Of a stretch of 64,000 nucleotides of DNA, positions 5,872 to 32,729 are shown piece by piece. Location: contig DATGZO010000012.1 of NCBI GenBank assembly GCA_035297105.1, positions 63,822 to 127,821 on the forward strand, written 5' to 3'. The notes beneath the pieces are model-generated. The model was not told the origin of the DNA. It did not search any database and saw nothing but the letters and a program-made list of their open reading frames with translations. This DNA comes from Thermoplasmata archaeon (GTDB taxonomy: Archaea > Thermoplasmatota > Thermoplasmata > Lutacidiplasmatales > UBA184). Each line of letters starts with the position of its first letter. Position 1 is the first letter of the stretch. Both the position numbers and the translations under genes were made by a program.

Positions 5872-6456
5872 ATGCTAGCAGAACTTGCGTATATACAGAC
5901 CGACATTCGAGGCGGTGTGCACCCCGATAACGGTCCACGTCCCGCCCATCCCCGCCCCGAGGACGACCCGTGGGCGGTCGCCGAGCGGCGCAGCCGGGCC
6001 GTCGAGGAGCCGCTCGACGTCCGCCTGGAGCGGCTTGACCCATTCCCGATCCTGGAGGTGCGGAACCCCCTCCATCGCACCGCGTACCGGGTGATGCTGC
6101 CGGCGTTCCCGGATCGGTCGGTCGCCCTCTGCACCTGCACCGACTTCGCGCGTCGCGGCCTCGGCACGTGCAAGCACATCGAGGCGGCGGGACGGTGGAG
6201 GGAGCGGCATCCCGACACCCCGCCCCGCTTCCCGCCCCGTCCGTTCGACCCGGCGGCCGTCTGGGCCGAGGTCGACCGGCGGCTCGCGGTGCTGGATCCG
6301 GACGCGCGACCCGCCAGCCGCACCTGGCGAGCGCCTGGCGCGGTCCTGTTCGAACGGGCCCCCGGTCCGTGGGTGGAGCGGGAAGAAGGAAAGGAAGAGG
6401 TTCGCCGCGGAGCGCCCCGACGGTCTACGCCGAGGACATCCCGGGGGCGCCCTTGA
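5872..6456 (+). CDS. SWIM zinc-finger domain protein
   Basis: 'CTCTDFARRGLGTCKHIEAA' fits the SWIM CxCxnCxH signature. Start is uncertain. The 3' end overlaps the radical-SAM gene convergently by ~30 bp. Confidence 0.4.
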   Translation: MLAELAYIQTDIRGGVHPDNGPRPAHPRPEDDPWAVAERRSRAVEEPLDVRLERLDPFPILEVRNPLHRTAYRVMLPAFPDRSVALCTCTDFARRGLGTCKHIEAAGRWRERHPDTPPRFPPRPFDPAAVWAEVDRRLAVLDPDARPASRTWRAPGAVLFERAPGPWVEREEGKEEVRRGAPRRSTPRTSRGRP

Positions 6457-8137
6457 GCGCCCGCACCCGGTAGTACTCGGGGTCGACGATGACTTCGCCG
6501 TTGACACCCATCGTCTCGAGGGTCCTCAACTGGGCGCCGCCGGCCTTCTTGGCCGCCTGCCAATCGGGGATCGGGATCGAGAACTTCTTCTCGACCTCTG
6601 TCCGGTAGATCGGGCCCGAGTTGTACGAGCAGAACGGGATGATCCGCCCGTCGGGAACGGCGTAGTGGATGTCGCAGCGCATCAGGCGCTGGATATCGTA
6701 GTCGTAGGCGTCCTGGAAGTGCATGTTCCCGATGTAGAGAGTGCGCCAGGTGAACTTCGCGACCGCTTCCTTGTTCCCCTCGGTGAAGATCGAGGCGATC
6801 ATGCGGACGCAGTTCTTCTCCGTGACCCCGTCGGGCGCCTTCGTGAAGTCGAAGTACTTCGACACATCGTGGAGCAGCTTCGCGCCGGCGACCGCCGTCC
6901 GGACCCGCGAGAAGCGGGCGTCCCGGTACTTCTCGATCATCGTCTCGACGTTCTCGAAGAACCCGTCGACGTCCATGAACCGGGGGAGCGGCGTGATCTT
7001 CTGCCCGTCCTTCGAGACGAAGGCGAAGGTCGCGCACCCGCATCCGGGGTGGGTCGTGAGGGTCATCTTCTCCTCGCCGTGGATGATCGAGGCGAGCTCC
7101 GAGATCGGGGCGACCGACGGCACGGGGAAGAAGTCCGACTTCTCGAACGGTCCCTCCGTGCAGAGGATCCGGACCAGGTCCGACTGGGTGAACCGCATCT
7201 GGAAGCGGTCCTTGTCGGGAATCCGGGCCGTGAGCGCGACCGGCTGGAAGTTGACGCCGCGGACGACGTCGATGTTGTCGATCGCGAACTTGACCGTCGG
7301 CCAGATCTCCTTCTCGTTGAACCCGCCGACCAGCGTCGGGACGAGCACGATGGAGAGGGGCTTGTCGGGCTTTCCGGCCGCGAGGTCGGAGGCCGGCGAG
7401 TGGGTCTCCCGGGCCGCCTGGATGGCCTTCTGCTTCACCTTGAGCAGGGGCACGCCGCGGACCTTCCGGTAGATTTCGTCATCCAGCCCGTCGAACTGTA
7501 GGTAGAGGGTGTGGAGCCCGTTGTCCCGGCACGCCTGGGCGAAGCCGGGCTCGTTGGCGACCCGAATCCCGTTGGTGGCGACCTGGACCTGCTTGAAGCC
7601 GAGGTCGCGGGCCATCCCGACCGCATCCAAGAAGAGCGGCGAGAGCGTCGGTTCCCCGCCCGAGAACTGGACGGCGACCGTGCCCACGGGCTTCTGCTCC
7701 CTGAGGGTCTTCAGCATGAAGTGGATCTGCTCGCGGGTCGGCTCGAAGACGTAGCCCGCGGCGTTCGCGTTCGCGAAGCAGACCGGGCACTTCAGGTTGC
7801 ACCGGTTCGTGAGGTCGATCAGGGCGAGTCCCGTGTGGGACTTGTGGTGGCTGCACATCCCGCAGGTGGTCGGGCAGCCGCGGAACTTGTCGTAGTAGGG
7901 GTTCTCGTAGCCGACCCCGTCGTGGGCGTAGACCTCCATCCGGAGGTAGAAATCGACATCGTTCGATATGATGTCCCAGAAGTAGCCGTGCGTTCGGCAC
8001 GTCTTCTCCATGATCACGCGGTGGTCCTTCTCCCGGACGACCGCGGGAATGACCTTGATGCACTCGGGGCAGACTGACGCCGTCTTACGGGGCAGTCCAC
8101 GGGGGGCTTGGAACTCCTTCATCACACGCGCCGGCAT
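6425..8137 (-). CDS. Radical SAM enzyme with N-terminal Cys4 zinc ribbon (COG1964-type; possibly tetraether-lipid-synthase Tes/GDGT-MAS-like)
   Basis: 'CNLKCPVCFANA' CxxxCxxC radical-SAM cluster motif and 'FSGGEPT' SAM-binding motif. N-terminal 'CPECIKV...KTCRTHG'. Length 570 aa is typical of archaeal Tes-family proteins. The Tes assignment is inferred, not proven. Confidence 0.6.
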   Translation of the reverse strand: MPARVMKEFQAPRGLPRKTASVCPECIKVIPAVVREKDHRVIMEKTCRTHGYFWDIISNDVDFYLRMEVYAHDGVGYENPYYDKFRGCPTTCGMCSHHKSHTGLALIDLTNRCNLKCPVCFANANAAGYVFEPTREQIHFMLKTLREQKPVGTVAVQFSGGEPTLSPLFLDAVGMARDLGFKQVQVATNGIRVANEPGFAQACRDNGLHTLYLQFDGLDDEIYRKVRGVPLLKVKQKAIQAARETHSPASDLAAGKPDKPLSIVLVPTLVGGFNEKEIWPTVKFAIDNIDVVRGVNFQPVALTARIPDKDRFQMRFTQSDLVRILCTEGPFEKSDFFPVPSVAPISELASIIHGEEKMTLTTHPGCGCATFAFVSKDGQKITPLPRFMDVDGFFENVETMIEKYRDARFSRVRTAVAGAKLLHDVSKYFDFTKAPDGVTEKNCVRMIASIFTEGNKEAVAKFTWRTLYIGNMHFQDAYDYDIQRLMRCDIHYAVPDGRIIPFCSYNSGPIYRTEVEKKFSIPIPDWQAAKKAGGAQLRTLETMGVNGEVIVDPEYYRVRALKGAPGMSSA

Positions 8138-9287: not shown

Positions 9288-11066
9288 GTGCAGATCCGCT
9301 ATCGGGTCGACACGGTCGCCCACGAGGGGCACCGGGGTCGATTCACGGTCGAACTGAACGGGGTGACCGATGCCTCGGTCGACCTGGTGGTCCCCTCCTG
9401 GGTCCCGGGCTCCTACCATCTCGTGAACTACGTCCGCGGGTTCCGGAACGTGACGGCTCGCGCCGGCCCCGACGGAGCCCTTCTCCCGACCGAGCGCGTG
9501 GAGTCCAGCCGGTGGAGGATCACGACCGGCGGCCACGCGGAGGTTCGGGTGGACTACACCGTCTACGGTCACGAACTGATCACGGAGGCGTTCGATCTTA
9601 CGCCGGAGCATCTATTCCTCAACGCGGCCCTGTCGCTGCCCTACGTCGAGGGCCACCTGGAGGATCCGGTCGAGGTCGAACTCCACCTCCCGCCAGACTG
9701 GCGGGTCGTCACCGAACTCGAGGAGGTCCGATCCCGACCGCCGACCTACCGGGCCCGGAACTACGACGAGCTCGTCGACAACCCGATCGACGCGGGGCAC
9801 CCGGTCGTGTTGACGATCCGCCCCCACGGGATCCCCCACCGGATCGCGATCTGCGGGGAGGGGGGCAACTACGAGGCGCACCGATTGGAAGAGGACTTGG
9901 GGAAGATCGTCGACGCCGCGATCCGGCTCATGGGCGATTCCCCTCTCACGGGGTACACCTTCTTCGTCCACCTGACCGACGTCCCGGACGGGGGCCTGGA
10001 GCATGGCGCCTCGAACTCGTCGGTGGTCCACCGAACGACCTTCGAGCCGCGAGAGCGGTACGAGCGGTTCCTCGGGCTCGAGAGCCACGAGTACTTTCAC
10101 CTGTACAACGTCAAGCGGATCCGGCCGAAGGTCCTGGGCCCGTTCGACTACACTCGAGAGAATTACACCCGCCTGCTCTGGTGGATGGAGGGAACGACCG
10201 ACTACTTCTCGGACCTCGTCCTCCGACGGGCGGACCTGTTGTCCCCCACCCGGTTCCTCGAGGAGTCCGCCAAGATCGCGAAGCTCCTCTTGGAATCTCC
10301 CGGTCGCCGGTTGCTCTCGCTGGAAGAGCTCTCGCAGATCACCTGGGTCGACTACTACAAACCGTACGAGGAATCCCCGAACCAATCGGTCTCGTACTAC
10401 ACCAAGGGCTACGTGGTCTCCCTCTGCCTCGACCTCGAGATCCGGCACCGGAGCGAGACGCGCGCCTCGATCGAGTCGGTCATGCGCCTCCTCTGGAAGG
10501 AGTACGGTCAGCCGGGGCGAGGGCTTGCGGAGGGCGAGCTCCAGCCGGTCGCCGAGCGGGCCACGGGTCTGGAGCTCGGCGAGTTCTTCGACCGGTACGT
10601 CCGGGGGACGGCCGAGCTCGACCTCGACCACTTCGCGGGGTACGCGGGCCTCACGTTCGGACCGAAACCGAAGCCCTCGGACGACCCGAGCCCCGAGGCG
10701 GGCTACCTGGGGATCCGCCACCGCGACGTGGGGGGTTTCGTGAAGGTCACGCACGTCCTCCTGGACACGCCCGCGCACCGGGCGGGGGTGAGCCCCGGCG
10801 ACGAGATCGTCGCCGTGAACGGCAACAAGGTCGCGGCCTCCTCCTTCGTGAAGGACCTCGAGGCGTACCCGCCCGGCACGCCCCTCGACCTCGCGGTCTT
10901 CCGACGGGGGTTCCTGCGCCACATTCCGCTGACCTCGGGGTCCCCTCCGCCCGAGAAGTACCGGTTCGCGTCGCTCGAAACGACCACCGACCTCGGAAAG
11001 AAGGTCTACCAGGCCTGGATCGGGGTCCCCTGGGAGCCCGCGAAGCCGGCCGCTACGAACCGGTAG
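9288..11066 (+). CDS. M61-family glycyl aminopeptidase with C-terminal PDZ domain
   Basis: Zinc motif 'HEYFHLYNV' (HExxH) plus downstream Glu. C-terminal 'GYLGI...VSPGDEIVAVNGNKV' PDZ-like. Confidence 0.7.
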   Translation: MQIRYRVDTVAHEGHRGRFTVELNGVTDASVDLVVPSWVPGSYHLVNYVRGFRNVTARAGPDGALLPTERVESSRWRITTGGHAEVRVDYTVYGHELITEAFDLTPEHLFLNAALSLPYVEGHLEDPVEVELHLPPDWRVVTELEEVRSRPPTYRARNYDELVDNPIDAGHPVVLTIRPHGIPHRIAICGEGGNYEAHRLEEDLGKIVDAAIRLMGDSPLTGYTFFVHLTDVPDGGLEHGASNSSVVHRTTFEPRERYERFLGLESHEYFHLYNVKRIRPKVLGPFDYTRENYTRLLWWMEGTTDYFSDLVLRRADLLSPTRFLEESAKIAKLLLESPGRRLLSLEELSQITWVDYYKPYEESPNQSVSYYTKGYVVSLCLDLEIRHRSETRASIESVMRLLWKEYGQPGRGLAEGELQPVAERATGLELGEFFDRYVRGTAELDLDHFAGYAGLTFGPKPKPSDDPSPEAGYLGIRHRDVGGFVKVTHVLLDTPAHRAGVSPGDEIVAVNGNKVAASSFVKDLEAYPPGTPLDLAVFRRGFLRHIPLTSGSPPPEKYRFASLETTTDLGKKVYQAWIGVPWEPAKPAATNR

Positions 11067-12060
11067 ACGGGACCGGGGAATCCGGGAGCGGGACCGCCTT
11101 GCGGCCGTACCGCCACTCGCCCTCCATCGGATAGAGCCGGCGAAGGCGCGTCCCGATTCGGGCGTCGATCCCGATCTCGCCGGGCGCGGCGTCCGCCACC
11201 TGCAGCGTCAACCGCACGCCCGGCGCGAACTCGGCGAGGACGACGGAATACTCCCCGAGCGCGTCGACCTGGGCGTCGAACTCCGTCGGTTGGCCTCCCT
11301 TCCCGATCGTTGTGACGGCGACCACCCATGCGCCGTCGCGGGGGAGGGTTTCGACCGTGAGCGACTCCTCGATCCCACAGGACCGACACCGGTTCCGCGC
11401 GGGGAAGGTGAGGGAGCCACACCGCCCGCACCGTTGCCCCTCGAGCCTCCATCGGCTCGGCAGGTTCTCGAGATACCGGGCCCGGGGGACGTAGGCCCCT
11501 TCCGAGAGGCCTCCCAGTGGGGCCTCGACCCACGCGCGGGCGCGGGCTTCCGCAGGAGGGGCCAGGCGGACGGGGGTGGTACTCTCCGCGACGGCCGAGG
11601 AAGGCAGTCCTCGGAGGAGGTCGCGCACCACGCCCGCGACTCCCTGGCCCGACAGCGGGGGGATGCCGGCCGACCCACCCGTCGACCCGAACCGAAGGGC
11701 CACGGCCGACGGCCCGCCCTCCGGCCGGTCCGGGAGGTCTACGGCCACGAGGAGGGCGGGACCCGAAGCTCCGGCCGCCGACAGCGCCGCGAGCGTCTCC
11801 CGGAGACCGGCGATCCCCGGCGGGTGCGGGACGACTCCGACCGGGTGGCCGAGGAGGGCGGCGAACCCCCACTCCACCACGGGCGGGAACGTCCCGACCA
11901 GATGGACCGAGATCGGTGGGGGAAGTCGGGCGGAGACCGTCGCCAGGCCCTCGAGCGCGGTCGCCGCCATCGTGAACGCATCTTCGTCCGGGCCGCCGAC
12001 CGCCCGTCCATCCCGGCGGAATCCGGGAACGTAGACCGCGCCCCGCTCGAGACCGGCCAT
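11053..12060 (-). CDS. DUF35 (Zn-ribbon + OB-fold) thiolase-partner protein with an N-terminal cysteine-free HMG-CoA-synthase-like remnant
   Basis: C-terminal 'CGRCGSLTFPARNRCRSCG' rubredoxin-like ribbon followed by an OB-fold-like region (DUF35). N-terminal 'AVYVPGFRRDGRAV...GPDEDAFTMAATALEGL' resembles the HMGCS N-terminus, but the first ~190 aa contain no Cys. Confidence 0.55.
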   Translation of the reverse strand: MAGLERGAVYVPGFRRDGRAVGGPDEDAFTMAATALEGLATVSARLPPPISVHLVGTFPPVVEWGFAALLGHPVGVVPHPPGIAGLRETLAALSAAGASGPALLVAVDLPDRPEGGPSAVALRFGSTGGSAGIPPLSGQGVAGVVRDLLRGLPSSAVAESTTPVRLAPPAEARARAWVEAPLGGLSEGAYVPRARYLENLPSRWRLEGQRCGRCGSLTFPARNRCRSCGIEESLTVETLPRDGAWVVAVTTIGKGGQPTEFDAQVDALGEYSVVLAEFAPGVRLTLQVADAAPGEIGIDARIGTRLRRLYPMEGEWRYGRKAVPLPDSPVPSTGS

Positions 12061-12064
12061 CGTT

Positions 12065-13237
12065 CTACCCCCGCGAGAAGAGGGTCACGGTCGCGGTCGC
12101 GCCCGCCCCCCCGACGTTGTGAGCGAGGGCCGTCTCGGCGCCCGGGACCTGGCGGCCCCCCGCCGCGGCTCGCAACTGGAGGAAGATCTCGTAGGCCTGA
12201 CTGACTCCCGTGGCTCCGATCGGATGCCCTTTGGCCTTGAGCCCGCCGTCGGGATTGACCGGTAGGCGTCCTCCGGCGCGGGTGGCTCCCGAGAGGGTCA
12301 GGTCGACCGCTCCGCCGGGCCCGACGAAACCGAGGTCCTCCAGCGCAAGGAGCTCGGCGATCGTGAAACAGTCATGGACCTCCAATAGATGGATCCGGTC
12401 GCGGGCGAGCTCGGCGTCGCGGAACGCCTCTTCCGCGGCCCGTTGCGTCGCGGTGAAGCGGGTGAGGTCGGGGCGCTCCTGTACGGCCAGACGGTCGCTG
12501 CCCGCCCCCAGCCCGTCGATGTAGACGGGCGTGTCCGTGAACTCCCGGGCCCGGTCCGCGCGCGCGAGGAGGAGGGCTGCCGCGCCGTCGCTGACCGGGC
12601 AGCAATCGAAGAGGCCGAGCGGGTCGGCGACGCGGGTCGCTCGGAGGACGTCCTCCCGCAGGATCCGCTTCTGGAAGTGGGCGTTCGGGTTCCGGCTTCC
12701 GTTCTCGTGGTTCTTGACCGCCACCTCGGCGAGGGCGTCCCGGGCCGACGGGTACCGGTGCACGTAGTCCGAGGCGATGAGCCCGTAGACCCCGGCGAAG
12801 GTCAGACCCGCGAGGCGCTCCCATTCGGTGTCGCCCGAGACCCCGAGCCAGTACCGACGCCGAGGGGCCCGTAGGTCCGTCATCTTCTCGACCCCCGCGA
12901 CGAGGACGAGGTCGGTGCGTCCCTCTTCCAGGGCCCGCACTCCTGCCCGGAGAGCGAACCCGCCCGAGGCGCACGCGTTCTCGACCCGCGTTGTGGGCAC
13001 TCCGACGAGCCCGGCTTCCTCATCCAGGACGGCCGACGCGTTCCCGATCTGCCAGCCCCCGAAACCGAGCGTCGCGAGGAACGCTTCCCCGACTCGCCGA
13101 CGCTCCGCACCCCGGTCTACGCTCGCGAACGCCCCGTCGACCGCGTTCCGAAGGAGGGTCCGCGGACCGGCGTCGAGGACCCCGAACCGGGTGTGGCCGG
13201 CCCCTACGATCGCTGCCCGGTGCCCCAACGTGCCCAC
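12065..13237 (-). CDS. Thiolase (acetyl-CoA C-acetyltransferase, archaeal type)
   Basis: 'AAIVGAGHTRFG', 'VENACASGGFAL' (active-site Cys), C-terminal 'GHPIGATG' and 'NVGGAG' motifs. GTG start. Directly upstream of the DUF35 gene. Confidence 0.8.
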   Translation of the reverse strand: MGTLGHRAAIVGAGHTRFGVLDAGPRTLLRNAVDGAFASVDRGAERRRVGEAFLATLGFGGWQIGNASAVLDEEAGLVGVPTTRVENACASGGFALRAGVRALEEGRTDLVLVAGVEKMTDLRAPRRRYWLGVSGDTEWERLAGLTFAGVYGLIASDYVHRYPSARDALAEVAVKNHENGSRNPNAHFQKRILREDVLRATRVADPLGLFDCCPVSDGAAALLLARADRAREFTDTPVYIDGLGAGSDRLAVQERPDLTRFTATQRAAEEAFRDAELARDRIHLLEVHDCFTIAELLALEDLGFVGPGGAVDLTLSGATRAGGRLPVNPDGGLKAKGHPIGATGVSQAYEIFLQLRAAAGGRQVPGAETALAHNVGGAGATATVTLFSRG

Positions 13238-13291
13238 CCGAGAATCGTCTTATCGGACGAGTCGCTCGCGCAGATAACGCTGGGGCATCTC

Positions 13292-13867
13292 GTGGTCGAA
13301 TCACCGCCCATCGTCGTCGGGGTCTCGGGAGCGAGCGGCGCCCCGATCGCCGTGCGGGTGCTCGAAGCCCTGCATGCAGCGGACGTCCCGGTCGCCCTGG
13401 TCCTCTCCGATGGGGCCCGGGCGGTCCTCCAGGAGGAGAGCCAGCGCACCCCCGATGACCTGGGAACGCTCGCCACGGTCGTCTACTCGGACCACGACCT
13501 CGGGGCGCCGATCGCGAGCGGCTCCCGGCCGACCCGGGGGATGGTCGTGGTCCCCTGCTCGGCGAACACGGCCGCCAAGATCGCCCTCGGCTTGTGCGAC
13601 ACGCTGCTCACCCGAGCGGCCCACGTTCACCTGAAGGAACGCCGTCGCCTCATCGTCGTCCCTCGCGAGACGCCGCTCCCCACGACGTTGCTCCGCCACC
13701 TGACGACCTTGAGCGAGCTCGGCGTGGTCGTGCTGGACGCTGCGCCCCCGTACTACCTGCATCCGCGCTCGATCGACGACCTCACCGGATACCTGGCCGG
13801 GAAAGTGCTCGACCACCTGGGCGTCCCCCACCATCTGTACCACGGTTGGAAGGCGGACGAACCATGA
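13292..13867 (+). CDS. ubiX: Flavin prenyltransferase UbiX
   Basis: 'IVVGVSGASGAPIAVRVLEAL', 'MVVVPCSANTAAKIALGLCDTLLTRAA', 'LIVVPRETPL' are typical UbiX/Pad1 motifs. In-frame GTG at 13292 avoids overlap with the thiolase start; an upstream ATG at 13193 is the alternative. Confidence 0.75.
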   Translation: MVESPPIVVGVSGASGAPIAVRVLEALHAADVPVALVLSDGARAVLQEESQRTPDDLGTLATVVYSDHDLGAPIASGSRPTRGMVVVPCSANTAAKIALGLCDTLLTRAAHVHLKERRRLIVVPRETPLPTTLLRHLTTLSELGVVVLDAAPPYYLHPRSIDDLTGYLAGKVLDHLGVPHHLYHGWKADEP

Positions 13868-14783: not shown

Positions 14784-15343
14784 GGATCCTCGTCATCGAC
14801 AACGGAGGTCAGTGGACCCACCGAGAGTGGCGCGTCCTCCGCGACTTGGACGTCGAGACCGCGATCGTTCCGAACACGACGCCGCGGGCCCAGCTCGCGG
14901 CGGACGGGATCGTCCTCTCGGGCGGCGCGCTCAGCCTGGAAGGGAGCGATACCCCCCTCGGCGCCGTCGCCGAGTGGATCGATACCATCGACGTGCCGGT
15001 CCTCGGGATCTGCGTCGGGCACCAGTTTCTCGGCCGGCATTTCGGTGCCCGGGTGGTCCGGGGCGACCCGGAGTTCGGGGCGACCGAGGTCACGGTGGAC
15101 CGCCCGGACCACCCGATCTTCGAGGGTCTGCCCACCCATCTCAAGGTCTGGTCGAACCACAACGACCACGTGACGGTCCCGCCACCGGGCTGGGCGGCCC
15201 TCGCGCACTCCACGTCGTGCCCGGTCCAGGCGATGGCCCACCCGACGCGCCCGATCTGGGGCATCCAGTTCCACCCCGAGGTCGAGCACACGGACGGCGG
15301 TCGGGAGATTTTCCGCCACTTCATCGCGGCGTGCCGACGCTGA
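14780..15343 (+). CDS. guaA-A: GMP synthase (glutamine-hydrolysing) subunit A / class-I glutamine amidotransferase; no canonical start codon upstream of the conserved N-terminus
   Basis: 'RILVIDNGGQWTHREWRVLRDLDVE' matches the archaeal GuaA-A N-terminus. Catalytic 'LGICVGHQ' and 'HPEV' present. The frame has no ATG/GTG/TTG between the in-frame stop at 14696-14698 and the TTG at 14846, so the start was placed at the CTG at 14780 (uncertain). Confidence 0.6.
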   Translation: MRILVIDNGGQWTHREWRVLRDLDVETAIVPNTTPRAQLAADGIVLSGGALSLEGSDTPLGAVAEWIDTIDVPVLGICVGHQFLGRHFGARVVRGDPEFGATEVTVDRPDHPIFEGLPTHLKVWSNHNDHVTVPPPGWAALAHSTSCPVQAMAHPTRPIWGIQFHPEVEHTDGGREIFRHFIAACRR

Positions 15344-15394: not shown

Positions 15395-16948
15395 ATGGCA
15401 CGGATACGACGGGCGTCCGGAGTACGGGAGCACGACCTCGTCGCGCGGGCGAAGGTCCTCAGGGAGTCGGTCGACTCCCTCCTGCCCCGCCTGACGGGGG
15501 ACGCACCGCACGACCGGTTCGACCGCCTGCGGGCCGACCTCGAGGAGATACGGGAGGCCCGGGACGATTCCCGGCGGCTCGAGAAGCTCGCCCGACGGGG
15601 CGATTCCATCCCGCGCGCGTACGCGGGACTGCTCGCGTTCTACCTGGACCCGAAGACACCCACGGTCGTTGCGTTCCCCCTCCCCAGCGGGGACGTCTCC
15701 TTCGCGGCCCTCTCGAAGGCGGACCGGGAGGCGGAGGTCGCCGTCCAGCAGTCCGACGACCCGAGCCGACTCCTCCTCGGGTACATGGAGTGGGCCCGGA
15801 AGGGCCTCCACTTCTACGCCTCCCGCAAGGCGCTCTGGTGCACGGGCCGCTCCGCCCGGCCGCCCGGGGAGGTCCTCGCGGAGCGGATCGCCGAGCTCCC
15901 GTACCGCACGGTCCCCGACGAGGGTGGGCGGGTGCTCGCCTGCCCCCATCTCGCCGCCCACGAGGCCCGCCCGTACCTCGAGGTCGGGTGGCCCGGAGCG
16001 GAGCGCGCCTTCCGGATCTGTCGGAGGTGCGCGAAGGACGACCGGCACCTCCTGAGCGTCCTCTCCGATGATGCGGCCGTCCCGGACCCGGCGTCCGCCT
16101 TTCCGGTCGAGGTCGAGCTGAACGTGGAGTGCCGGGGCGGACCCGAATGCGTGCACGCCGACCTCCCGTCGCTCCCGAAGCGGCTCCGTCGCGACTACGA
16201 GTTCGGTCGGCTCTCCGACGCGGCCCTGCTCGATGCGTACCGCACGGAGATCCGACCCACCATCGAGGGAACCCGCCGCACGACGCTGGTCGCAGGAGGG
16301 ATCTGCTACGGGGACCGGATGACGGAGTTCCTGGACGCGCTGCACCCGACCGCGGTCGAGCGCCGGGCGCTCGAGGCCGCGCTCGCGGACTTGCGCGGCT
16401 ATTTCGAGGTCGACGAACCGGCCGCGAGCCGGGCCTTGGAACGCCTCTGGCCCCAGCACGCGGAGGAGATCGTCGGCGCCATCACGGAGGACGAGGCCGA
16501 GGCCCGGCGCGCCCTCCAGGAAGCGCGCGATGCACCGGGACGGATCGCCGAGATCCTGAAGCGGGCGCAGCGACGCGGCGAGGAACGGGAGCTACTGGAA
16601 GCCCTGCCGCGCTACAGCCGCCTGACCAGCGAGGCCGCGTGGGTCGACCGCGTGGCCCGGGCCTACCGGACGCACCGCGAGGCGGGCGCGGAGCGCACGC
16701 TGCTCCAGACGCTCCCTCGAGAAGGAAAGGAGCGGGGACTGGCCTACGCGTTCCTTCTCGCTCTCGGACGGGCCGCCTCCCATGCGTGGCAGTTCACGCC
16801 CACGGAACAGGAGTTCGGCTCGTCCCTCGCCGGACCGGCGCGGACCCTGCTGGACTCCGCCGCGCCCGCGTACCACGACGCGCTGGACGCGCTCCTGCGG
16901 ACCGCCGGCGTCGCGGACTGGGGTTCCCGGGAGACGGCCTCGGTGTAA
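15395..16948 (+). CDS. Hypothetical 517-aa protein with central Cys/His cluster
   Basis: 'CPHLAAHEARPYLEVGWPGAERAFRICRRCAKDD' and 'ECRGGPECVH' suggest metal binding. No family recognised. Confidence 0.4.
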   Translation: MARIRRASGVREHDLVARAKVLRESVDSLLPRLTGDAPHDRFDRLRADLEEIREARDDSRRLEKLARRGDSIPRAYAGLLAFYLDPKTPTVVAFPLPSGDVSFAALSKADREAEVAVQQSDDPSRLLLGYMEWARKGLHFYASRKALWCTGRSARPPGEVLAERIAELPYRTVPDEGGRVLACPHLAAHEARPYLEVGWPGAERAFRICRRCAKDDRHLLSVLSDDAAVPDPASAFPVEVELNVECRGGPECVHADLPSLPKRLRRDYEFGRLSDAALLDAYRTEIRPTIEGTRRTTLVAGGICYGDRMTEFLDALHPTAVERRALEAALADLRGYFEVDEPAASRALERLWPQHAEEIVGAITEDEAEARRALQEARDAPGRIAEILKRAQRRGEERELLEALPRYSRLTSEAAWVDRVARAYRTHREAGAERTLLQTLPREGKERGLAYAFLLALGRAASHAWQFTPTEQEFGSSLAGPARTLLDSAAPAYHDALDALLRTAGVADWGSRETASV

Positions 16949-26957: not shown

Positions 26958-27065
26958 AGTCTTTGCCCCCAGGGGGCCGGGACGCCCCGGAACGCCCCGC
27001 GGAGCCCCACCGGCAAACTCCTATGTACCCTCGCGGGGGATTCGCCCGGCGGAGTGGGGAGAGTC

Positions 27066-28562
27066 ATGCCTTCGAAGGTCGAGCAGTTCGGTCTGTTCAT
27101 TAACGGCAAGTGGAGCTCGCCGGCCAACGCGAAGCGATTCGAAACGGTGAACCCGGCGACCCGGGAACCGCTCGCCTCCTTCGTCGCGGGCACCCCCGCC
27201 GACGTGGACCGGGCCATCTCTGCGGCCCACGCGGCCTTCCCCGCGTGGCGGGACACGCCGGCTCCCAAGCGGGGCACCCTCCTGCTCGAAGCCGCCCGCA
27301 TCCTGACCGAACGGAAGAGCGCGGTCGGGCGGATCGTCACGCAGGAGATGGGGAAGGTCATCAGCGAGGGCCTGGGCGACGTCCAGGAATCGATCGACTT
27401 CATCGAGTACATGGCCGGCGAGGGACGGCGTCTGGTCGGCGAAACGGTCCCCTCGGAGCTGCGGTCCAAGTTCTGTCTCACCGTGCGCCAGCCGAAGGGG
27501 GTGGTCGCCTGCATCACGCCCTGGAACTTCCCCACCGCCATCCCGAACTGGAAGATCGCGGCGGCCCTCATCACGGGCAACACGATCGTATTCAAGCCCG
27601 CCTCCAACACCGCGCTCTGCGCGGCTCAGGTCGTCAAGGTCTACGAATCCGCGGGGATCCCGCCCGGGGTCCTCAATTTCGTCACCGGTTCCGGCAGTGT
27701 CGTCGGCACCGCCCTCGTCGAGGACCCCCGGATCCGGACGATCTCGTTCACGGGAGGTGTCGAGACCGGCCGGGATGTCTACGTGCGCGGCGCCAAGGGC
27801 CTCAAGATGGTCCACTTGGAGCTCGGAGGCAAGAACCCGGTGATCGTCATGGACGACGCGAACCTTCCCCTTGCCCTGGATGGCGTCCTGTTCGGCGCGT
27901 TCGGCACGAGCGGCCAGCGCTGCACCGCGACCAGCCGGCTCATCCTGCACGAGAAGGTCTACTCTCAGTTCCTCGGCATGCTCACCGACCGGCTGAAGAA
28001 GTTCACGGTCGGGGACCCGCTCGACCCGAAGACGGGGATGGGACCGGTCGCGTCGGCGGACCAGGAGCGCAAGATCTTGGAGTACATCGCGATCGGGAAG
28101 AAGGAGGCCAAGCTCGTCTGCGGCGGCGAGAAGCTGAAGGGCGGGATCTACGACCGCGGGTACTTCCTCGCCCCGACGATCTTCGAGACCCGCCACGGCA
28201 GTCGGATCTCGAAGGAGGAGATCTTCGGGCCCGTGCTCTCCGTGATCAAGGTCGCGGACTACGCCGAGGCGGTCCGGGTCGCGAACGACGTCGAGTACGG
28301 TCTCTCCTCCTCCATCTACACGCGCGACGTGAACCGGGCCTTCCGGGCGATCGAGGACCTCGAGGCGGGGATCACGTACGTCAACGCGCCCACGATCGGG
28401 GCGGAGGTCCACCTTCCCTTCGGGGGCGTCAAGAACACCGGGAACGGCGGCCGGGAGGCCGGCTCGGCCGCGATCGAGGAGTTCACCGAGGTCAAGACGG
28501 TCTTCGTCGACTTCTCCGACAAGCTCCAGAAGGCGCAGATCGACTCCGAAACGGCGGCATGA
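27066..28562 (+). CDS. NAD(P)-dependent aldehyde dehydrogenase
   Basis: 'FTGGVETGR', catalytic 'ELGGKNP' and 'GQRCTATSR' (Cys), 'EEIFGPV'. The 5' part of the track ORF upstream of the ATG at 27066 is artefact. Confidence 0.85.
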   Translation: MPSKVEQFGLFINGKWSSPANAKRFETVNPATREPLASFVAGTPADVDRAISAAHAAFPAWRDTPAPKRGTLLLEAARILTERKSAVGRIVTQEMGKVISEGLGDVQESIDFIEYMAGEGRRLVGETVPSELRSKFCLTVRQPKGVVACITPWNFPTAIPNWKIAAALITGNTIVFKPASNTALCAAQVVKVYESAGIPPGVLNFVTGSGSVVGTALVEDPRIRTISFTGGVETGRDVYVRGAKGLKMVHLELGGKNPVIVMDDANLPLALDGVLFGAFGTSGQRCTATSRLILHEKVYSQFLGMLTDRLKKFTVGDPLDPKTGMGPVASADQERKILEYIAIGKKEAKLVCGGEKLKGGIYDRGYFLAPTIFETRHGSRISKEEIFGPVLSVIKVADYAEAVRVANDVEYGLSSSIYTRDVNRAFRAIEDLEAGITYVNAPTIGAEVHLPFGGVKNTGNGGREAGSAAIEEFTEVKTVFVDFSDKLQKAQIDSETAA

Positions 28563-28765
28563 CCGGCTTCCGAGGCTCTGACGACCAACTCGACCGCGAG
28601 ATCGCGGCCATCGAGGGGATCGCCCGGGTCCGCGTGCGCCGCGCCGCGGCGGAGCTGCGCGACCTCGACCGGGACCTGCGCGAGCTGAAGCGGGAACGCG
28701 CCCGCCGTCGGTCGATGGTCAGCGAGAACCTCCCGACGGAGGAATCCGTGCCTGTCCCCGGCTGA
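28559..28765 (+). CDS. Small hypothetical protein (68 aa), start overlapping the aldehyde-dehydrogenase stop
   Basis: ATGA overlap at 28559-28562. Arg/Glu-rich helical sequence. Weak evidence. Confidence 0.25.
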   Translation: MTGFRGSDDQLDREIAAIEGIARVRVRRAAAELRDLDRDLRELKRERARRRSMVSENLPTEESVPVPG

Positions 28766-28774
28766 CCGACCCGG

Positions 28775-30257
28775 TCAGAACGGTCCGGTCCGGCCCGGGT
28801 TGTCGAAGTTCGTGAGGAGGAGCTGCCCGCGCGAGCGCGGACGGCCCACCGGCGCGATGAGCGGGTCCTCCTCGAGGGCCGGCATCGTGTCGGAGATCGG
28901 GACATCGACCAGGATCTCCCGGGTGCGTCCGCCCCGGCCGCGGGAGACGATCGTCGCCCGGATCAGGCCGAGGGATTCGAGCTCGGAGACGTAGTTGGAG
29001 ATCGAGCGGGCATGGAGAGGCTGGAGTCCCAAGCGCTCGGCGAGTCGGCGGTAGGCATCGTACACTTCTCCCGTGAGGACCCCGTTGCGCCGACGCTCGC
29101 ACGCCTGCAGGATCGCGTAGAGGAGGACCTTGCAGTGCGGCGGGAGCGTGCGGCAACAGTCCAGGATGATGTCCTGCTCGAGCCGGTTCTTCGCCTTCAC
29201 GACGTGGTCGGGCGTGATCCGCTTCGCCCGGTCCCGCTCCGCCATCTCGGCCGAGAGGCGGAGGAGGGCGAGGGCCCGGCGGGCGTCCCCGTTCTCGAGC
29301 GCGGCGTACGCGGCGCACCGCTCCACCACGCCCGGGTCGATGACCCCGTCGCGGAACGCTTCCTTTGCCCGGTCCCTAAGGATGTCCTGGAGCTGGAGCG
29401 CATCGTACGGCGGGAAGAGGATCTTCTCCTCGTTCAAGCGGCTGCGAACGCGCGCGTCGAGATGGTTCGTGAACTTCAAGTCGTTCGAGATCCCGAGCAG
29501 GATGAGGCGCGCGAGCTCGAGCTCGGTGTTGAGCTGGCTCAAGGTGTAGAGGACGCTGTCGCCGGACCGCGCCACGAGCCGGTCGATCTCATCGAGGACC
29601 AAGATGACGGTGCCGCCCTTCGTGTCGAGCAGTCGCCGCATGGCGGCCTGCACCCGGTCGAGCGACCAGCCGGTCGGGATCCGCTCGGCCTCCGTCTTCG
29701 CGAACGTGTTGCCCACGTTCTGCAGGAGCCCGTACGGCGTGTCGATGTTGCCGCAGTTGATGTAGATGAACGAGATGTGGCTCGCGAGCTCGGTGCGGCG
29801 CATCACGTCCTGGCGCACTTGGGCCACGACCGCGGTCTTCCCGGTCCCGATCTTGCCGTAGATCAGGAGGTTCGAGGGAGTATCGCCGCGGAGAGCGGGG
29901 GCGAGGACCTCGGCCACCTGGCGGATCTGCTCCTCCCGGTGCGGCAGGCGGCTGGGTATGTAGGAGTCGCGTAGGATCTCTCGGCTGCCGCGATAGAGCT
30001 CGCTCTTCGTCTCGAGAAGGGAGTCGATGAACGCGCCGGCGGTGGCGGTGGGTGCGGGTGGAGGGGCGGGGCTCCCCAATACGGGAGCCGTCGCCGGACC
30101 TCCACCCGTTGGGCGGTCGCTGACGGGGACGACCGCCCCGGTGGCGAAGGGCACTGGGTCTTGCCGGTCGGAGATGTCTATCGACCGGTTCTCAGGAGCA
30201 GGTGACACCGTCGATGCCTGCCCGGGCCTCGGGCGGGCTGTCGCACGTGCGAGGGCC
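28775..30257 (-). CDS. orc1: Orc1/Cdc6 replication initiator with Pro/Ala-rich N-terminal extension
   Basis: 'LLIYGKIGTGKTAVV' Walker A, 'ILVLDEID' Walker B, C-terminal winged helix. 'PSRLPHREEQI' matches the conserved Orc1 N-terminal motif. Start placed at MALARATA (30257); the alternative is 30427. Confidence 0.8.
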
Positions 30258-30354
30258 ATATCTACCTTTGGTAGATTTTTTTCGGCGAGTGACGTCGAAC
30301 GCGGAAATTTCTCCGGGTACCGGCTCGCGTCGCGACGTGACCTGGGTCGACGGC
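30258..30354. promoter_or_regulatory. orc1 upstream region: 7-bp hairpin ATCTACC-TTT-GGTAGAT, T7 run and GGAAATTTCTCC near-palindrome; candidate leaderless promoter and/or origin element
   Basis: Read directly. On the minus strand it reads AAAAAAATCTACCAAAGGTAGAT immediately 5' of the orc1 ATG. This is the most AT-rich stretch in a GC-rich locus. Confidence 0.35.
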
Positions 30355-30516
30355 TCACGCGCACTCGAGCGGCGTCGCATCCCAAGGGTCGAACCGCTCC
30401 CGACACTTCGGACAGTAAAGATAGCACTGGACTTCGCCGGAGATCGGGCCCTCCAGCAGTGCGCCGCAGTCGGGGCAGCGTCCCGGGGGAGGCCCCGATT
30501 CGGTCGTTCCGGCCAT
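30355..30516 (-). CDS. Small zinc-ribbon protein
   Basis: 'CPDCGALLEGPISGEVQCYLYCPKCRERF' is a CxxC...CxxC ribbon. Start taken at the internal Met. Confidence 0.4.
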   Translation of the reverse strand: MAGTTESGPPPGRCPDCGALLEGPISGEVQCYLYCPKCRERFDPWDATPLECA

Positions 30517-30838: not shown

Positions 30839-31678
30839 ATGGCGGCCTCACCGGGGACGACCCCGCCGGTGATCGTCAAGCTCGGGGGGAGCGTGATCAC
30901 CCGGAAGCGCGAGGTGGAGCACCTCCGCCCGAAGATCCTCCGTCGCCTCGCCGAGGAGCTCGCCGCGTGCCGGGACATTCCCCTGATCGTGCTCCACGGG
31001 GCCGGATCGTTCGGCCACCCGGGCGCCCAGCGGTTCGGACTCGCCCGAGCTCCGGACGCCGCGATCTCCCCGGCGCAGCGGGCTCGGGGCGCGGCGATCG
31101 TCGCCGCGGAAGTGCGTCGCCTGCATCTCGCCGTCCTCCGCGAGCTCGTGCGCGCGGGCGTGTCGCCGGGCTCCGTGCCGCCGGCGACCCACGCGATGAA
31201 CCGCGCGGGCCGTCTCGAGACGTTCGACCCGACTCCGTTCAGGACCGTCCTCGATTCGGGGCTCACCCCGGTGTCGTTCGGGGACGTGGTCCCGGACCGG
31301 GCGTGGGGATGGTCGATCCTCAGCGCGGACACGATGGCGATCTCCCTCGCCGCCGCCTTCCGGGTGGAGCGGGTCCTGTTCGTCAGCGACGTCCCGGGGA
31401 TCCTGGAACCCGGGACCCAGGGGCGGCCGGTCGCCCTTCCGAACGTCACCGAGTCGGTCGTTGAAGGGCTTCGGCCCCGCGGCGGAACCCCCGACGTCAC
31501 CGGTGGCATCCGGGGGAAGGCCGAGGCGATGCTCGCCATCGCCCGTCTCGGCGCGGACGCAGGTCTTATTAGTGGACTCAAGGATGGAGAGCTCTCGCGC
31601 GCGGTGCGGGGGGAATCCGTCTACGGGAGCTGGGCCCACGGACGACCCAGCGACGGCCCCGGATCGAACCGGACTTGA
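30839..31678 (+). CDS. ipk: Isopentenyl phosphate kinase (amino-acid-kinase fold)
   Basis: 'VIVKLGGSVITRK', 'LIVLHGAGSFGHPGA' and 'DVTGGIRGK' match IPK/fosfomycin-kinase family motifs. Adjacent to IDI-2. Confidence 0.75.
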   Translation: MAASPGTTPPVIVKLGGSVITRKREVEHLRPKILRRLAEELAACRDIPLIVLHGAGSFGHPGAQRFGLARAPDAAISPAQRARGAAIVAAEVRRLHLAVLRELVRAGVSPGSVPPATHAMNRAGRLETFDPTPFRTVLDSGLTPVSFGDVVPDRAWGWSILSADTMAISLAAAFRVERVLFVSDVPGILEPGTQGRPVALPNVTESVVEGLRPRGGTPDVTGGIRGKAEAMLAIARLGADAGLISGLKDGELSRAVRGESVYGSWAHGRPSDGPGSNRT

Positions 31679-32729
31679 CTTAAGCCACCGGAAGGCGGAA
31701 CACGTCAAGGTCGTCCTGGGCCAGAAGGTCGAAGGACGGTACCGTTACTGGGACGACATCCAACTGATCCATCGGGCCCTCCCGGACATCGACTTTGATG
31801 AGATCGACCCCTCGACGACCCTGCTCGGCCACCGTCTGGCCGCCCCGATCGTGATCACCGGGATGACCGGGGGCTTTCCGGATGCGAAGAAGATCAACGA
31901 GAACCTCGCCCGCGCCGCGGCGGAGGTCGGCGTCGCGATGGGCGTGGGCAGCGAGCGGGCGGCCGTGCTGAAGGGGCAGTACCCCGAGAGCTACTCGTGC
32001 GTCGCCCAGTACGCCGTCCCGCTCAAGTTCGCCAACATCGGGGCGCCCCAGATCATCCCGCAAAAACCCCACGACCAGGTCGTAGGCCCCACGGAGGTGC
32101 GTGCCGCGATGGAGCTGATCCACGCGGACGTGCTCGCGATCCACCTGAACTTCCTCCAGGAGATGGTACAGCCCGAGGGGGACCGGAAGGCGCGCGGGGT
32201 TTTGGAGCAGATCGGAGTTCTTGCGGCCCAGTTCCCGGTCCTGGTCAAGGAGACCGGCGCGGGCATCTCACGGGCGGTCGCGGAGGACCTGCGCGACCGG
32301 AAGGTACGGGCGTTCGACGTAAGTGGGACGGGAGGGACCTCCTTCGCCGCGGTCGAGCACTATCGAGCGGTCGCCCAGGGCGCCGAGCGGGAAGCCCGAG
32401 TGGGCAAGACGTTCTGGGACTGGGGCATCCCCTCTCCGGTCTCCGTCCTACAGCTGGTGCCGCTCGGCCTTCCCGTGGTCGCGAGCGGAGGCGTCCGCTC
32501 GGGCCTCGACGTGGCCCGGGCCCTCTCGCTCGGAGCCTCGGCCGCCGGTACCGCCGCGGGGGTCCTGCGCTCGGCCTCGGAAGGATACGAGGCGACCCGG
32601 CGCGAGCTCGACCACCTGGTCCACGAACTCAAGGTCGCCATGTTCCTCACCGGTTCGCGGACCGTGGCGGAGCTCCAGCGTGCGCCCCATGTGATCACCG
32701 GGGAGAGCCGACAGTGGCTGTCCCACTAG
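31584..32729 (+). CDS. fni: Isopentenyl-diphosphate delta-isomerase type 2 (FMN-dependent)
   Basis: 'SHRKAEHVKV' N-terminal motif, 'PIVITGMTGG', 'VKETGAGIS', 'ASGGVRSGLDVARALSLGA' TIM-barrel FMN motifs. No canonical start lies close to the conserved N-terminus, so the ATG at 31584 (overlapping ipk by ~95 bp) was used. Confidence 0.7.
   Translation: MESSRARCGGNPSTGAGPTDDPATAPDRTGLDLSHRKAEHVKVVLGQKVEGRYRYWDDIQLIHRALPDIDFDEIDPSTTLLGHRLAAPIVITGMTGGFPDAKKINENLARAAAEVGVAMGVGSERAAVLKGQYPESYSCVAQYAVPLKFANIGAPQIIPQKPHDQVVGPTEVRAAMELIHADVLAIHLNFLQEMVQPEGDRKARGVLEQIGVLAAQFPVLVKETGAGISRAVAEDLRDRKVRAFDVSGTGGTSFAAVEHYRAVAQGAEREARVGKTFWDWGIPSPVSVLQLVPLGLPVVASGGVRSGLDVARALSLGASAAGTAAGVLRSASEGYEATRRELDHLVHELKVAMFLTGSRTVAELQRAPHVITGESRQWLSH

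Follow-up and report, generated by a model that had tools for sequence, protein, structure and literature searches.

A condensing enzyme reduced to a catalytically dead half appears to be retained as the partner of an intact thiolase in archaea of the order Lutacidiplasmatales. The locus lies in a 64,000-nucleotide stretch of a Thermoplasmata archaeon (GenBank assembly GCA_035297105.1, contig DATGZO010000012.1, positions 63,822 to 127,821; GC content ~69%), the whole of which is called the window here. Two adjacent genes on its minus strand encode a 390-residue thiolase (12065-13237) and then a 335-residue protein (11053-12060), as the original prediction had them. In the latter, a half resembling 3-hydroxy-3-methylglutaryl-CoA (HMG-CoA) synthase (HMGCS), without an active site, is fused to a DUF35 module. 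Elsewhere in the order there is a trio of genes with the reverse composition: a live HMGCS, a thiolase that has lost its catalytic residues, and a DUF35 protein. The reading that we favour, and that we hold to be fairly probable, is that these are two reciprocal half-dead complexes. The dead half-HMGCS fused to DUF35 would serve as structural partner of the live thiolase, the dead thiolase would accompany the live HMGCS together with DUF35, and the window thiolase would feed the mevalonate pathway.

The thiolase is an intact protein of the SCP2-type/archaeal family (Pfam Thiolase_N and Thiolase_C_1; NCBIfam PRK06064, 427.6 bits). It keeps the catalytic Cys, HDxF and GHx, with the nucleophile C89 (12971-12973) in RVENACASG, H288 (12374-12376) in EVHDCF and H338 (12224-12226) in KGHPIG. 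Among proteins of solved structure it is closest to the thiolase of Pyrococcus, 7yvy (248 bits), followed by the mevalonate thiolase of Methanothermococcus, 6esq_A (241 bits). Among orthologs from about 80 species the catalytic motifs are intact wherever they were detected, and omega (dN/dS) is ~0.06-0.1, a value that, like all those given below, was obtained with the NG86 method and is crude because of extreme GC at third codon positions and high divergence; only comparisons between genes or domains of the closest pairs were used. The window thiolase is predicted to be a catalytically competent acetoacetyl-CoA thiolase. A spacer of four nucleotides (AACG, 12061-12064), read directly from the sequence, separates its TAG from the ATG of the fusion gene, which implies co-transcription and coupled translation. 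Some orthologous pairs overlap by 4 nt.

The C-terminal half of the 335-residue protein is a canonical DUF35, as had been proposed. Residues 184-335 (11056-11511) open with the conserved segment 'SEGAYVPRARYLENLPSRWRL', continue through a four-Cys zinc ribbon (C211, C214, C225 and C228; 11377-11430) and end, at 'LRRLYPMEGEWRYGRKAVP', with the OB fold of a DUF35/ChsH2-type scaffold (PF12172 plus PF01796). Pfam reports zf-ChsH2 alone, at residues 205-229 (PF12172, E = 9.1e-8, above the gathering score). Over this half, the family profile has the DUF35 subunit 6esq_E as its best match in the PDB (E = 3.2e-13, TM 0.78), and the four cysteines of the rubredoxin-like ribbon are invariant in a 49-sequence alignment. 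There are exactly four cysteines in the protein, all within the ribbon, so that residues 1-210 have none. The original prediction, which quoted the strings 'AVYVPGFRRDGRAV...GPDEDAFTMAATALEGL' and 'CGRCGSLTFPARNRCRSCG' (all are present), was right in calling the N-terminus Cys-free.

The HMGCS models of Pfam and NCBIfam (PRK04262, TIGR00748 and TIGR01835; PF01154 and PF08540) give no hit to this protein, and the homology of its N-terminal half is visible at the profile-profile and structural level alone. At that level it is well beyond chance. The family profile finds HMGCS 5hwq in the PDB (E = 2.9e-4), with 1x9e and PhlA at ~1e-3, and hhalign matches the N-domain alignment to 21 genuine HMGCS sequences with a probability of 97.6% (E = 4.5e-12, 139 columns, residues 3-142). 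The match to archaeal-type HMGCS is weaker than that to the bacterial type (88%, 48 columns). In the AlphaFold2 (AF2) model of the whole protein (pLDDT 89.5, pTM 0.89), residues 1-125 adopt the beta-alpha-beta-alpha-beta-alpha-beta-beta pattern of one half of the thiolase fold. The N-half aligns with condensing enzymes over 150-200 residues, as against 256-296 for mid-length relatives, and the complete two-half fold is not there. Residues 1-142 (11635-12060) thus correspond to the N-terminal half of an HMGCS/FabH-like thiolase fold. Residues 143-183 (11512-11634), for which hhalign finds no match to HMGCS, are a poorly conserved leftover or linker in place of the lost C-terminal half. Some 190 residues had been thought to resemble the start of HMGCS. 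The resemblance stands, but its extent does not: homology covers residues ~3-142, a complete half-fold, and the rest is fast-evolving leftover.

The Glu-Cys-His-Asn tetrad of HMG-CoA synthase is absent from this half. By alignment, F58 (11887-11889) occupies the position of the catalytic Glu (GTES/GSES). H79 (11824-11826) belongs to a conserved 'RH' that takes the position of 'KH' in KHAC, and the next two residues of that motif, Ala-Cys, have been deleted. The catalytic His and Asn fall in the missing C-terminal half. Loss of the Cys-His-Asn triad had been anticipated, and mapping the deleted residues adds the catalytic Glu to it. D25-E26-D27 (11980-11988) matches the conserved, non-catalytic 'PxDED' motif of HMGCS. 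E26 was considered as the catalytic Glu and ruled out by the spacing of 32 residues between Glu and Cys, which leads instead to the Glu of GTES/GSES, aligned to F58. As judged from these alignments, the N-terminal domain is a dead half-HMGCS, a whole half-fold of ~140 residues. In other words, it is an inactive HMGS-like domain fused N-terminal to DUF35, with the HMGS part cut to its N-half.

This architecture is widespread in the order. The 335-residue protein matches 492 database proteins, almost all of them full length (~320-360 aa) and labelled Thermoplasmata or Candidatus Lutacidiplasmatales. With one genome taken per GTDB species, relatives of the fusion occur in 158 species, of which the best 80 were inspected as loci. 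These 80 are Thermoplasmata metagenome-assembled genomes (MAGs), except one labelled 'bacterium', and they include UBA184 and the AcS/SubAcS MAGs, the founding set of the order Lutacidiplasmatales (TMEG) (PMC9287336). Whenever a contig holds both genes (~70 of the 80 species loci), the fusion gene comes after the thiolase gene, and no DUF35-only version was found at the locus. The genome labelled 'bacterium' (L040, DAIDCO010000004.1) has a typical Lutacidiplasmatales locus; it and P0431, an HMGCS of the Thermoplasmata-type archaeal family labelled 'Candidatus Acidiferrales bacterium', are probably mislabelled or misbinned assemblies. On two long-read MAG contigs, genes are split into two to three open reading frames (thiolase, fusion and M61 in L046; thiolase and M61 in L027). 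Most likely these are assembly frameshift errors, not pseudogenes.

A search of 1.84 billion representative proteins with an N-domain profile returned 166 relatives. Besides the short family they comprise forms of ~400-500 aa whose DUF35 motifs are the same, fusions of haloarchaeal type (~480-500 aa), Actinobacterium-like ones (~400 aa) and a few true HMGCS, of which one, P0229, is myxobacterial. None of the fusions aligned has a Cys at the catalytic position. The fusions form a shortening series, from ~480 through ~430 to ~335 aa. Mid-length forms have a complete C-half where the window protein has residues 143-183, recognised by structure alone; compared with HMGCS by hhalign, their N-half is detected and their C-half is not. 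In sister lineages the dead HMGCS domain is still full length, and related fusions occur in haloarchaea and bacteria.

What if the N-terminal region is simply a functionless relic on its way out, and the DUF35 part alone matters, as in the BbsAB-type thiolase/DUF35 pairs? The progressive shortening would fit, and so would rapid evolution. Compared with its nearest species, the window organism shows 94% identity in the thiolase and 70% in the fusion. Omega for residues 126-183 is 0.55-0.65 and reaches ~1 in other pairs, and residues 143-183 are 33-40% identical in species pairs with thiolases at 91-94%. However, residues 1-125 have an omega of 0.2-0.4 (0.07-0.13 in DUF35), seven residues are invariant across a 25-sequence N-domain alignment (D25-E26-D27, T30, A35, E37 and G71), the region is kept in 158 species genomes, and AF2 folds it confidently in a fixed orientation to DUF35. 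The 49-sequence alignment agrees, with a very conserved C-terminal half, a looser N-terminal half and invariant residues in both; D25 and D27 are invariant there, and E26 is found in at least 90% of sequences. By these measures the remnant is constrained, far less than the DUF35 clamp, and the ranking is clear. A mere relic is accordingly very improbable. The proposal that the degenerate domain is kept as a structural module fits its conservation (at least 158 species), invariant residues, omega below 1 and confidently modelled fold, and in that qualified form it survives.

The original prediction also held that no intact HMGCS is adjacent. This holds for the window, for 10 kb past either end and for ±10 kb around the ortholog in 80 other genomes, in none of which an HMGCS gene was found. 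The window does contain an isopentenyl phosphate kinase gene (30839-31678, plus strand; NF040647, 173.5 bits) beside one for type-2 isopentenyl diphosphate isomerase (31461-32729, plus strand; TIGR02151, 361.6 bits), and these two show that the organism has a mevalonate pathway, of the isopentenyl phosphate kinase type. The literature found on Lutacidiplasmatales and Thermoplasmatota makes no mention of mevalonate genes.

A genuine HMGCS was found elsewhere. A metagenome collection was scanned at the DNA level for two motifs of archaeal HMGCS (FTGEP...FHQPN, in G/C-ending codons). This gave 120 loci, all genuine type-A HMGCS and mostly in HMGCS-thiolase-DUF35 operons. Six of them, one from a sibling peat sample, match the tetranucleotide composition of the window (r 0.95-0.98, compared with 0.948-0.996 for 75 known Lutacidiplasmatales control loci). 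Their HMGCS family is 84-94% identical among the best 120 hits and carries the source name 'hydroxymethylglutaryl-CoA synthase [Thermoplasmata archaeon]'. Shared assembly accessions place trio and fusion pair together in two MAGs of the order. In WH2.bin150 (L217 and L042) the trio is on JAKABH010000001.1 and the pair on JAKABH010000030.1, and in AcS1-67 (L232 and L016) they are on JAKIVX010000021.1 and JAKIVX010000008.1, respectively. A third trio is on a 159-kb contig of metagenome 3300010379, which also holds the contig of the window organism. The bona fide trio that the original prediction had suggested looking for in the rest of the genome is therefore present in the order.

All motifs of the trio HMGCS are in place (GSES, EFACKAG, FHQPN and GNTYS). 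Those of the trio thiolase are not. Where 6esq_A has RVEAACASG it has RVEGGGASG, and the nucleophilic Cys is lost; where 6esq_A has GHALG it has GRPFG, and the GH histidine is lost; and HDCF is replaced by HDAY or NDAY. The dead thiolase is under purifying selection (omega 0.13-0.22), evolving almost as slowly as HMGCS (0.11-0.14). It matches 6esq_A with 357 bits, more than the 241 bits of the window thiolase, and by that score is the closer (true) ortholog of the Methanothermococcus mevalonate thiolase. The two thiolases of the order are ~39-43% identical to each other. In a neighbour-joining tree the window-type thiolases and a haloarchaeal fusion-partner thiolase (see below) form an exclusive clade, apart from all operon-linked thiolases, including those of the trio. 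This bears out the earlier suggestion of a paralogous complex. The two gene sets are old paralogs, each of which, in this order, is predicted to lack one activity. By catalytic residues, neither locus encodes the canonical channeling complex, with active thiolase and active HMGCS in one assembly.

Loss of the nucleophile is also seen more widely. Among 80 aligned operon-linked thiolases (loci L092-L211), ~45 have no canonical nucleophile Cys, and the GH histidine is usually gone too. Their motif classes are EAAGASG, EAADASG, EGGGASG and EGGGACG, the last with a Cys two residues downstream. The full HMGCS tetrad beside Cys-less thiolases was checked in Lutacidiplasmatales-type loci only; the motifs indicate that Cys-less thiolases adjoining HMGCS also occur outside Lutacidiplasmatales.

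Bacterial fusions of an inactive HMGS with DUF35, next to active ACATs, were described in 2026 (PMC12960953). The Pseudomonas fluorescens complex PfACAT/HMGS-DUF35, an active thiolase complex, resembles the window in gene order (thiolase, then fused HMGS-DUF35), in an HMGS part without the Glu-Cys-His-Asn tetrad, in a thiolase that keeps Cys, HDxF and GHx, and in the absence of polyketide synthase/nonribosomal peptide synthetase neighbours (Nat Commun 2026, PMC12960953). It differs in being bacterial with a full-length HMGS domain, whereas the window protein is archaeal and has the N-terminal half of the fold alone (PMC12960953). In addition, the window pair, unlike that of P. fluorescens, coexists in its order with a canonical operon bearing a dead thiolase. 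Another counterpart is found on pHM500 of Haloferax mediterranei (HFX_RS18405/HFX_RS18410), where a thiolase is likewise followed by a pseudo-HMGCS-DUF35 fusion without the catalytic Cys. Identity to the window proteins is 48% for the thiolase and 36% for the DUF35 part. Unlike in the window, the Haloferax pseudo-HMGCS is full length (HFX_RS18405, ~476 aa, is recognised by the archaeal HMGCS model PRK04262 with E = 5.6e-37), and the pair is part of a paaK/beta-oxidation cluster. Haloarchaeal HMGCS is a type of its own (NCBIfam NF041302). The two Haloferax genes (L091, 378323-380913) are annotated 'thiolase domain-containing protein' and 'zinc ribbon domain-containing protein', and 36 haloarchaeal plasmid or megaplasmid records contain pairs of this kind.

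These counterparts lend themselves to another explanation, in which the window pair is a catabolic or otherwise non-mevalonate thiolase complex that cleaves or forms some 3-ketoacyl-CoA, and a different enzyme supplies acetoacetyl-CoA for isoprenoids. The window thiolase clusters with the haloarchaeal fusion-partner thiolase, not with the operon-linked mevalonate thiolases. The haloarchaeal pair sits among genes for paaK, MaoC, 3-hydroxyacyl-CoA dehydrogenase and enoyl-CoA hydratase. Furthermore, the P. fluorescens complex cleaved acetoacetyl-CoA in vitro, thiolysis being its sole activity (PMC12960953). However, the only thiolase found beside HMGCS in the order has no nucleophile, no beta-oxidation or aromatic-catabolism genes were found within ±10 kb in ~80 genomes, and the pair belongs to the core loci of the order, being universal there and slow to evolve (thiolase omega ~0.06). 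A catabolic role is unlikely when both sides are weighed. The non-mevalonate role suggested earlier is not favoured in particular because the trio thiolase lacks both the nucleophilic Cys and the GH histidine, which makes the intact window thiolase the most plausible source of acetoacetyl-CoA for HMGCS.

If the two complexes are indeed reciprocal, the window locus would encode a two-protein thiolase complex of Lutacidiplasmatales/TMEG, made of the thiolase and a DUF35 zinc-ribbon/OB-fold clamp fused to a pseudoenzyme. The thiolase would make (or cleave) acetoacetyl-CoA, and the complex of HMGCS, dead thiolase and DUF35 would convert acetoacetyl-CoA to HMG-CoA for the mevalonate pathway. Each live enzyme may keep a dead copy of its partner for assembly, for solubility and for a shared CoA pocket. 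This proposal draws on characterised complexes, in which thiolase and HMGCS, clamped by DUF35, form the CoA pocket where they meet, the interfacial CoA chamber is retained even with a dead HMGS-like subunit, and the ACAT-like subunit MucB is insoluble and aggregates when expressed alone (PMC12960953). From the sequences we infer that the complexes form, that the remnant has a structural role and that one complex hands its product on to the other. A more specific version can be offered tentatively, as something that may or may not be so: an ancestral channeling complex would have given rise to two paralogous complexes that must work together, each having a live and a dead enzyme, in which the dead partners are kept because the CoA-binding cleft and assembly need both folds.

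The dimer interface of thiolase-superfamily proteins lies in their N-terminal half, which would explain why exactly that half has been retained. This would equally suit an arrangement in which the two gene sets co-assemble, as a heterodimer of live and dead thiolase or as the half-HMGCS with the real HMGCS, which would bring a live thiolase beside a live HMGCS and preserve channeling. Purifying selection on both dead partners also speaks for co-assembly. On the other hand, the two thiolases share only the modest identity given above, and the presence of a separate DUF35 in each set points to complexes that are complete by themselves. Co-assembly is therefore improbable.

Several points weigh against reciprocal complexes with a mevalonate role for the window thiolase. 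The same-genome link depends on composition and on MAG binning in two MAGs, neither of them the window's own assembly. The closest thiolase to that of the window (48% identity) is the fusion partner in the haloarchaeal paaK/beta-oxidation cluster, and the P. fluorescens complex was solely thiolytic in vitro (PMC12960953); both fit a catabolic ancestry. Another active source of acetoacetyl-CoA in a complete genome is possible. The canonical complex owes its efficiency to channeling, which would be lost if the two activities were housed apart. Constraint on the N-half is modest, since it evolves 3-5 times as fast as DUF35. Finally, the adjacency of the UbiX and Tes genes described below is probably mere order-wide synteny.

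Comparison with other known systems brings out what is particular here. The channeling complex of Methanothermococcus thermolithotrophicus (PDB 6ESQ/6ET9) has the same three building blocks, and its thiolase is of the same family as that of the window. There the three are individual proteins, both enzymes are active and a single CoA site serves them, whereas in the window a dead half-HMGCS is fused to DUF35; and the operon orthologous to it, in two MAGs of the order, has the dead thiolase. PhlABC and MucABC (PDB 5M3K, 9VBO) combine PhlA or MucA, dead HMGS-like subunits without catalytic residues, with an ACAT-like subunit and DUF35, and they are structural neighbours of both domains of the fusion. 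Unlike the window pair they are three separate proteins encoded in secondary-metabolite clusters, and the ACAT-like subunit, without HDxF, acetylates phenolic or tetramate acceptors. In PqsC/PqsB and KS/CLF a dead partner pairs with a paralog of the same enzyme type, with no DUF35 fusion and no reciprocal arrangement. In the literature searched, no description was found of a dead HMGS truncated to a half-fold, nor of an order-wide pairing with a canonical operon bearing a dead thiolase.

The surroundings of the locus are conserved as well. Where the flanks suffice, a gene for a 517-residue hypothetical protein, GMP synthase subunit A (14846-15343) and UbiX lie on one strand and the thiolase and fusion genes on the other, usually followed by those for an M61 peptidase and Tes. 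The UbiX-family flavin prenyltransferase gene (13292-13867, plus strand; PRK06029, 196.6 bits) is divergent from the thiolase gene, an arrangement conserved order-wide, and the 54-bp spacer between them (13238-13291) contains an inverted repeat, TTATC...GATAA. UbiX supplies the cofactor of UbiD-type decarboxylases of the archaeal mevalonate route. The neighbourhood of UbiX and Tes was considered as a functional isoprenoid link and set aside as weak evidence: synteny extends over the whole ±10 kb throughout the order and takes in unrelated genes, so that adjacency is not read as functional linkage. The tetraether lipid synthase Tes (6425-8137, minus strand; NCBIfam NF045702, 573 bits) shows 97-99% identity between species that share 70-94% in the genes around it. 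Its dS is 0.13-0.32, compared with 0.5-0.9 for the neighbours. Either it is unusually constrained, even at synonymous sites, or it has been recently exchanged. The 517-residue protein (15395-16948, plus strand) has no match in Pfam or NCBIfam, is 91-94% identical between close species and always adjoins GMP synthase subunit A. Further away, an Orc1/Cdc6 gene (28775-30427, minus strand) lies beside ~1.7 kb (27000-28700) without a recognisable gene, where an open reading frame at 27021-28412 has no family match; this region may be a replication origin.

By the accepted view, archaea use the complex of thiolase, HMGCS and DUF35 to get past the unfavourable thiolase reaction with which membrane-lipid synthesis begins. 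An order abundant in acidic soils and peat appears to split the two activities into reciprocal half-dead complexes. If this is true, channeling would be dispensable or achieved otherwise, and pseudoenzymes would be retained as obligatory structural halves of a shared substrate site. It would also be wrong here, and perhaps in many archaea, to annotate an operon of thiolase, HMGCS and DUF35 as a working module from acetyl-CoA to HMG-CoA. Since more than half of the aligned operon-linked thiolases have no canonical Cys, a live HMGCS beside a dead thiolase may be common in uncultured archaea, in which case the textbook channeling complex would not be the general archaeal solution for the first steps towards isoprenoid lipids. 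In the N-half of the fold, the locus itself provides a minimal construct made by nature, with which to ask what part of HMGCS is needed by a thiolase clamped by DUF35.

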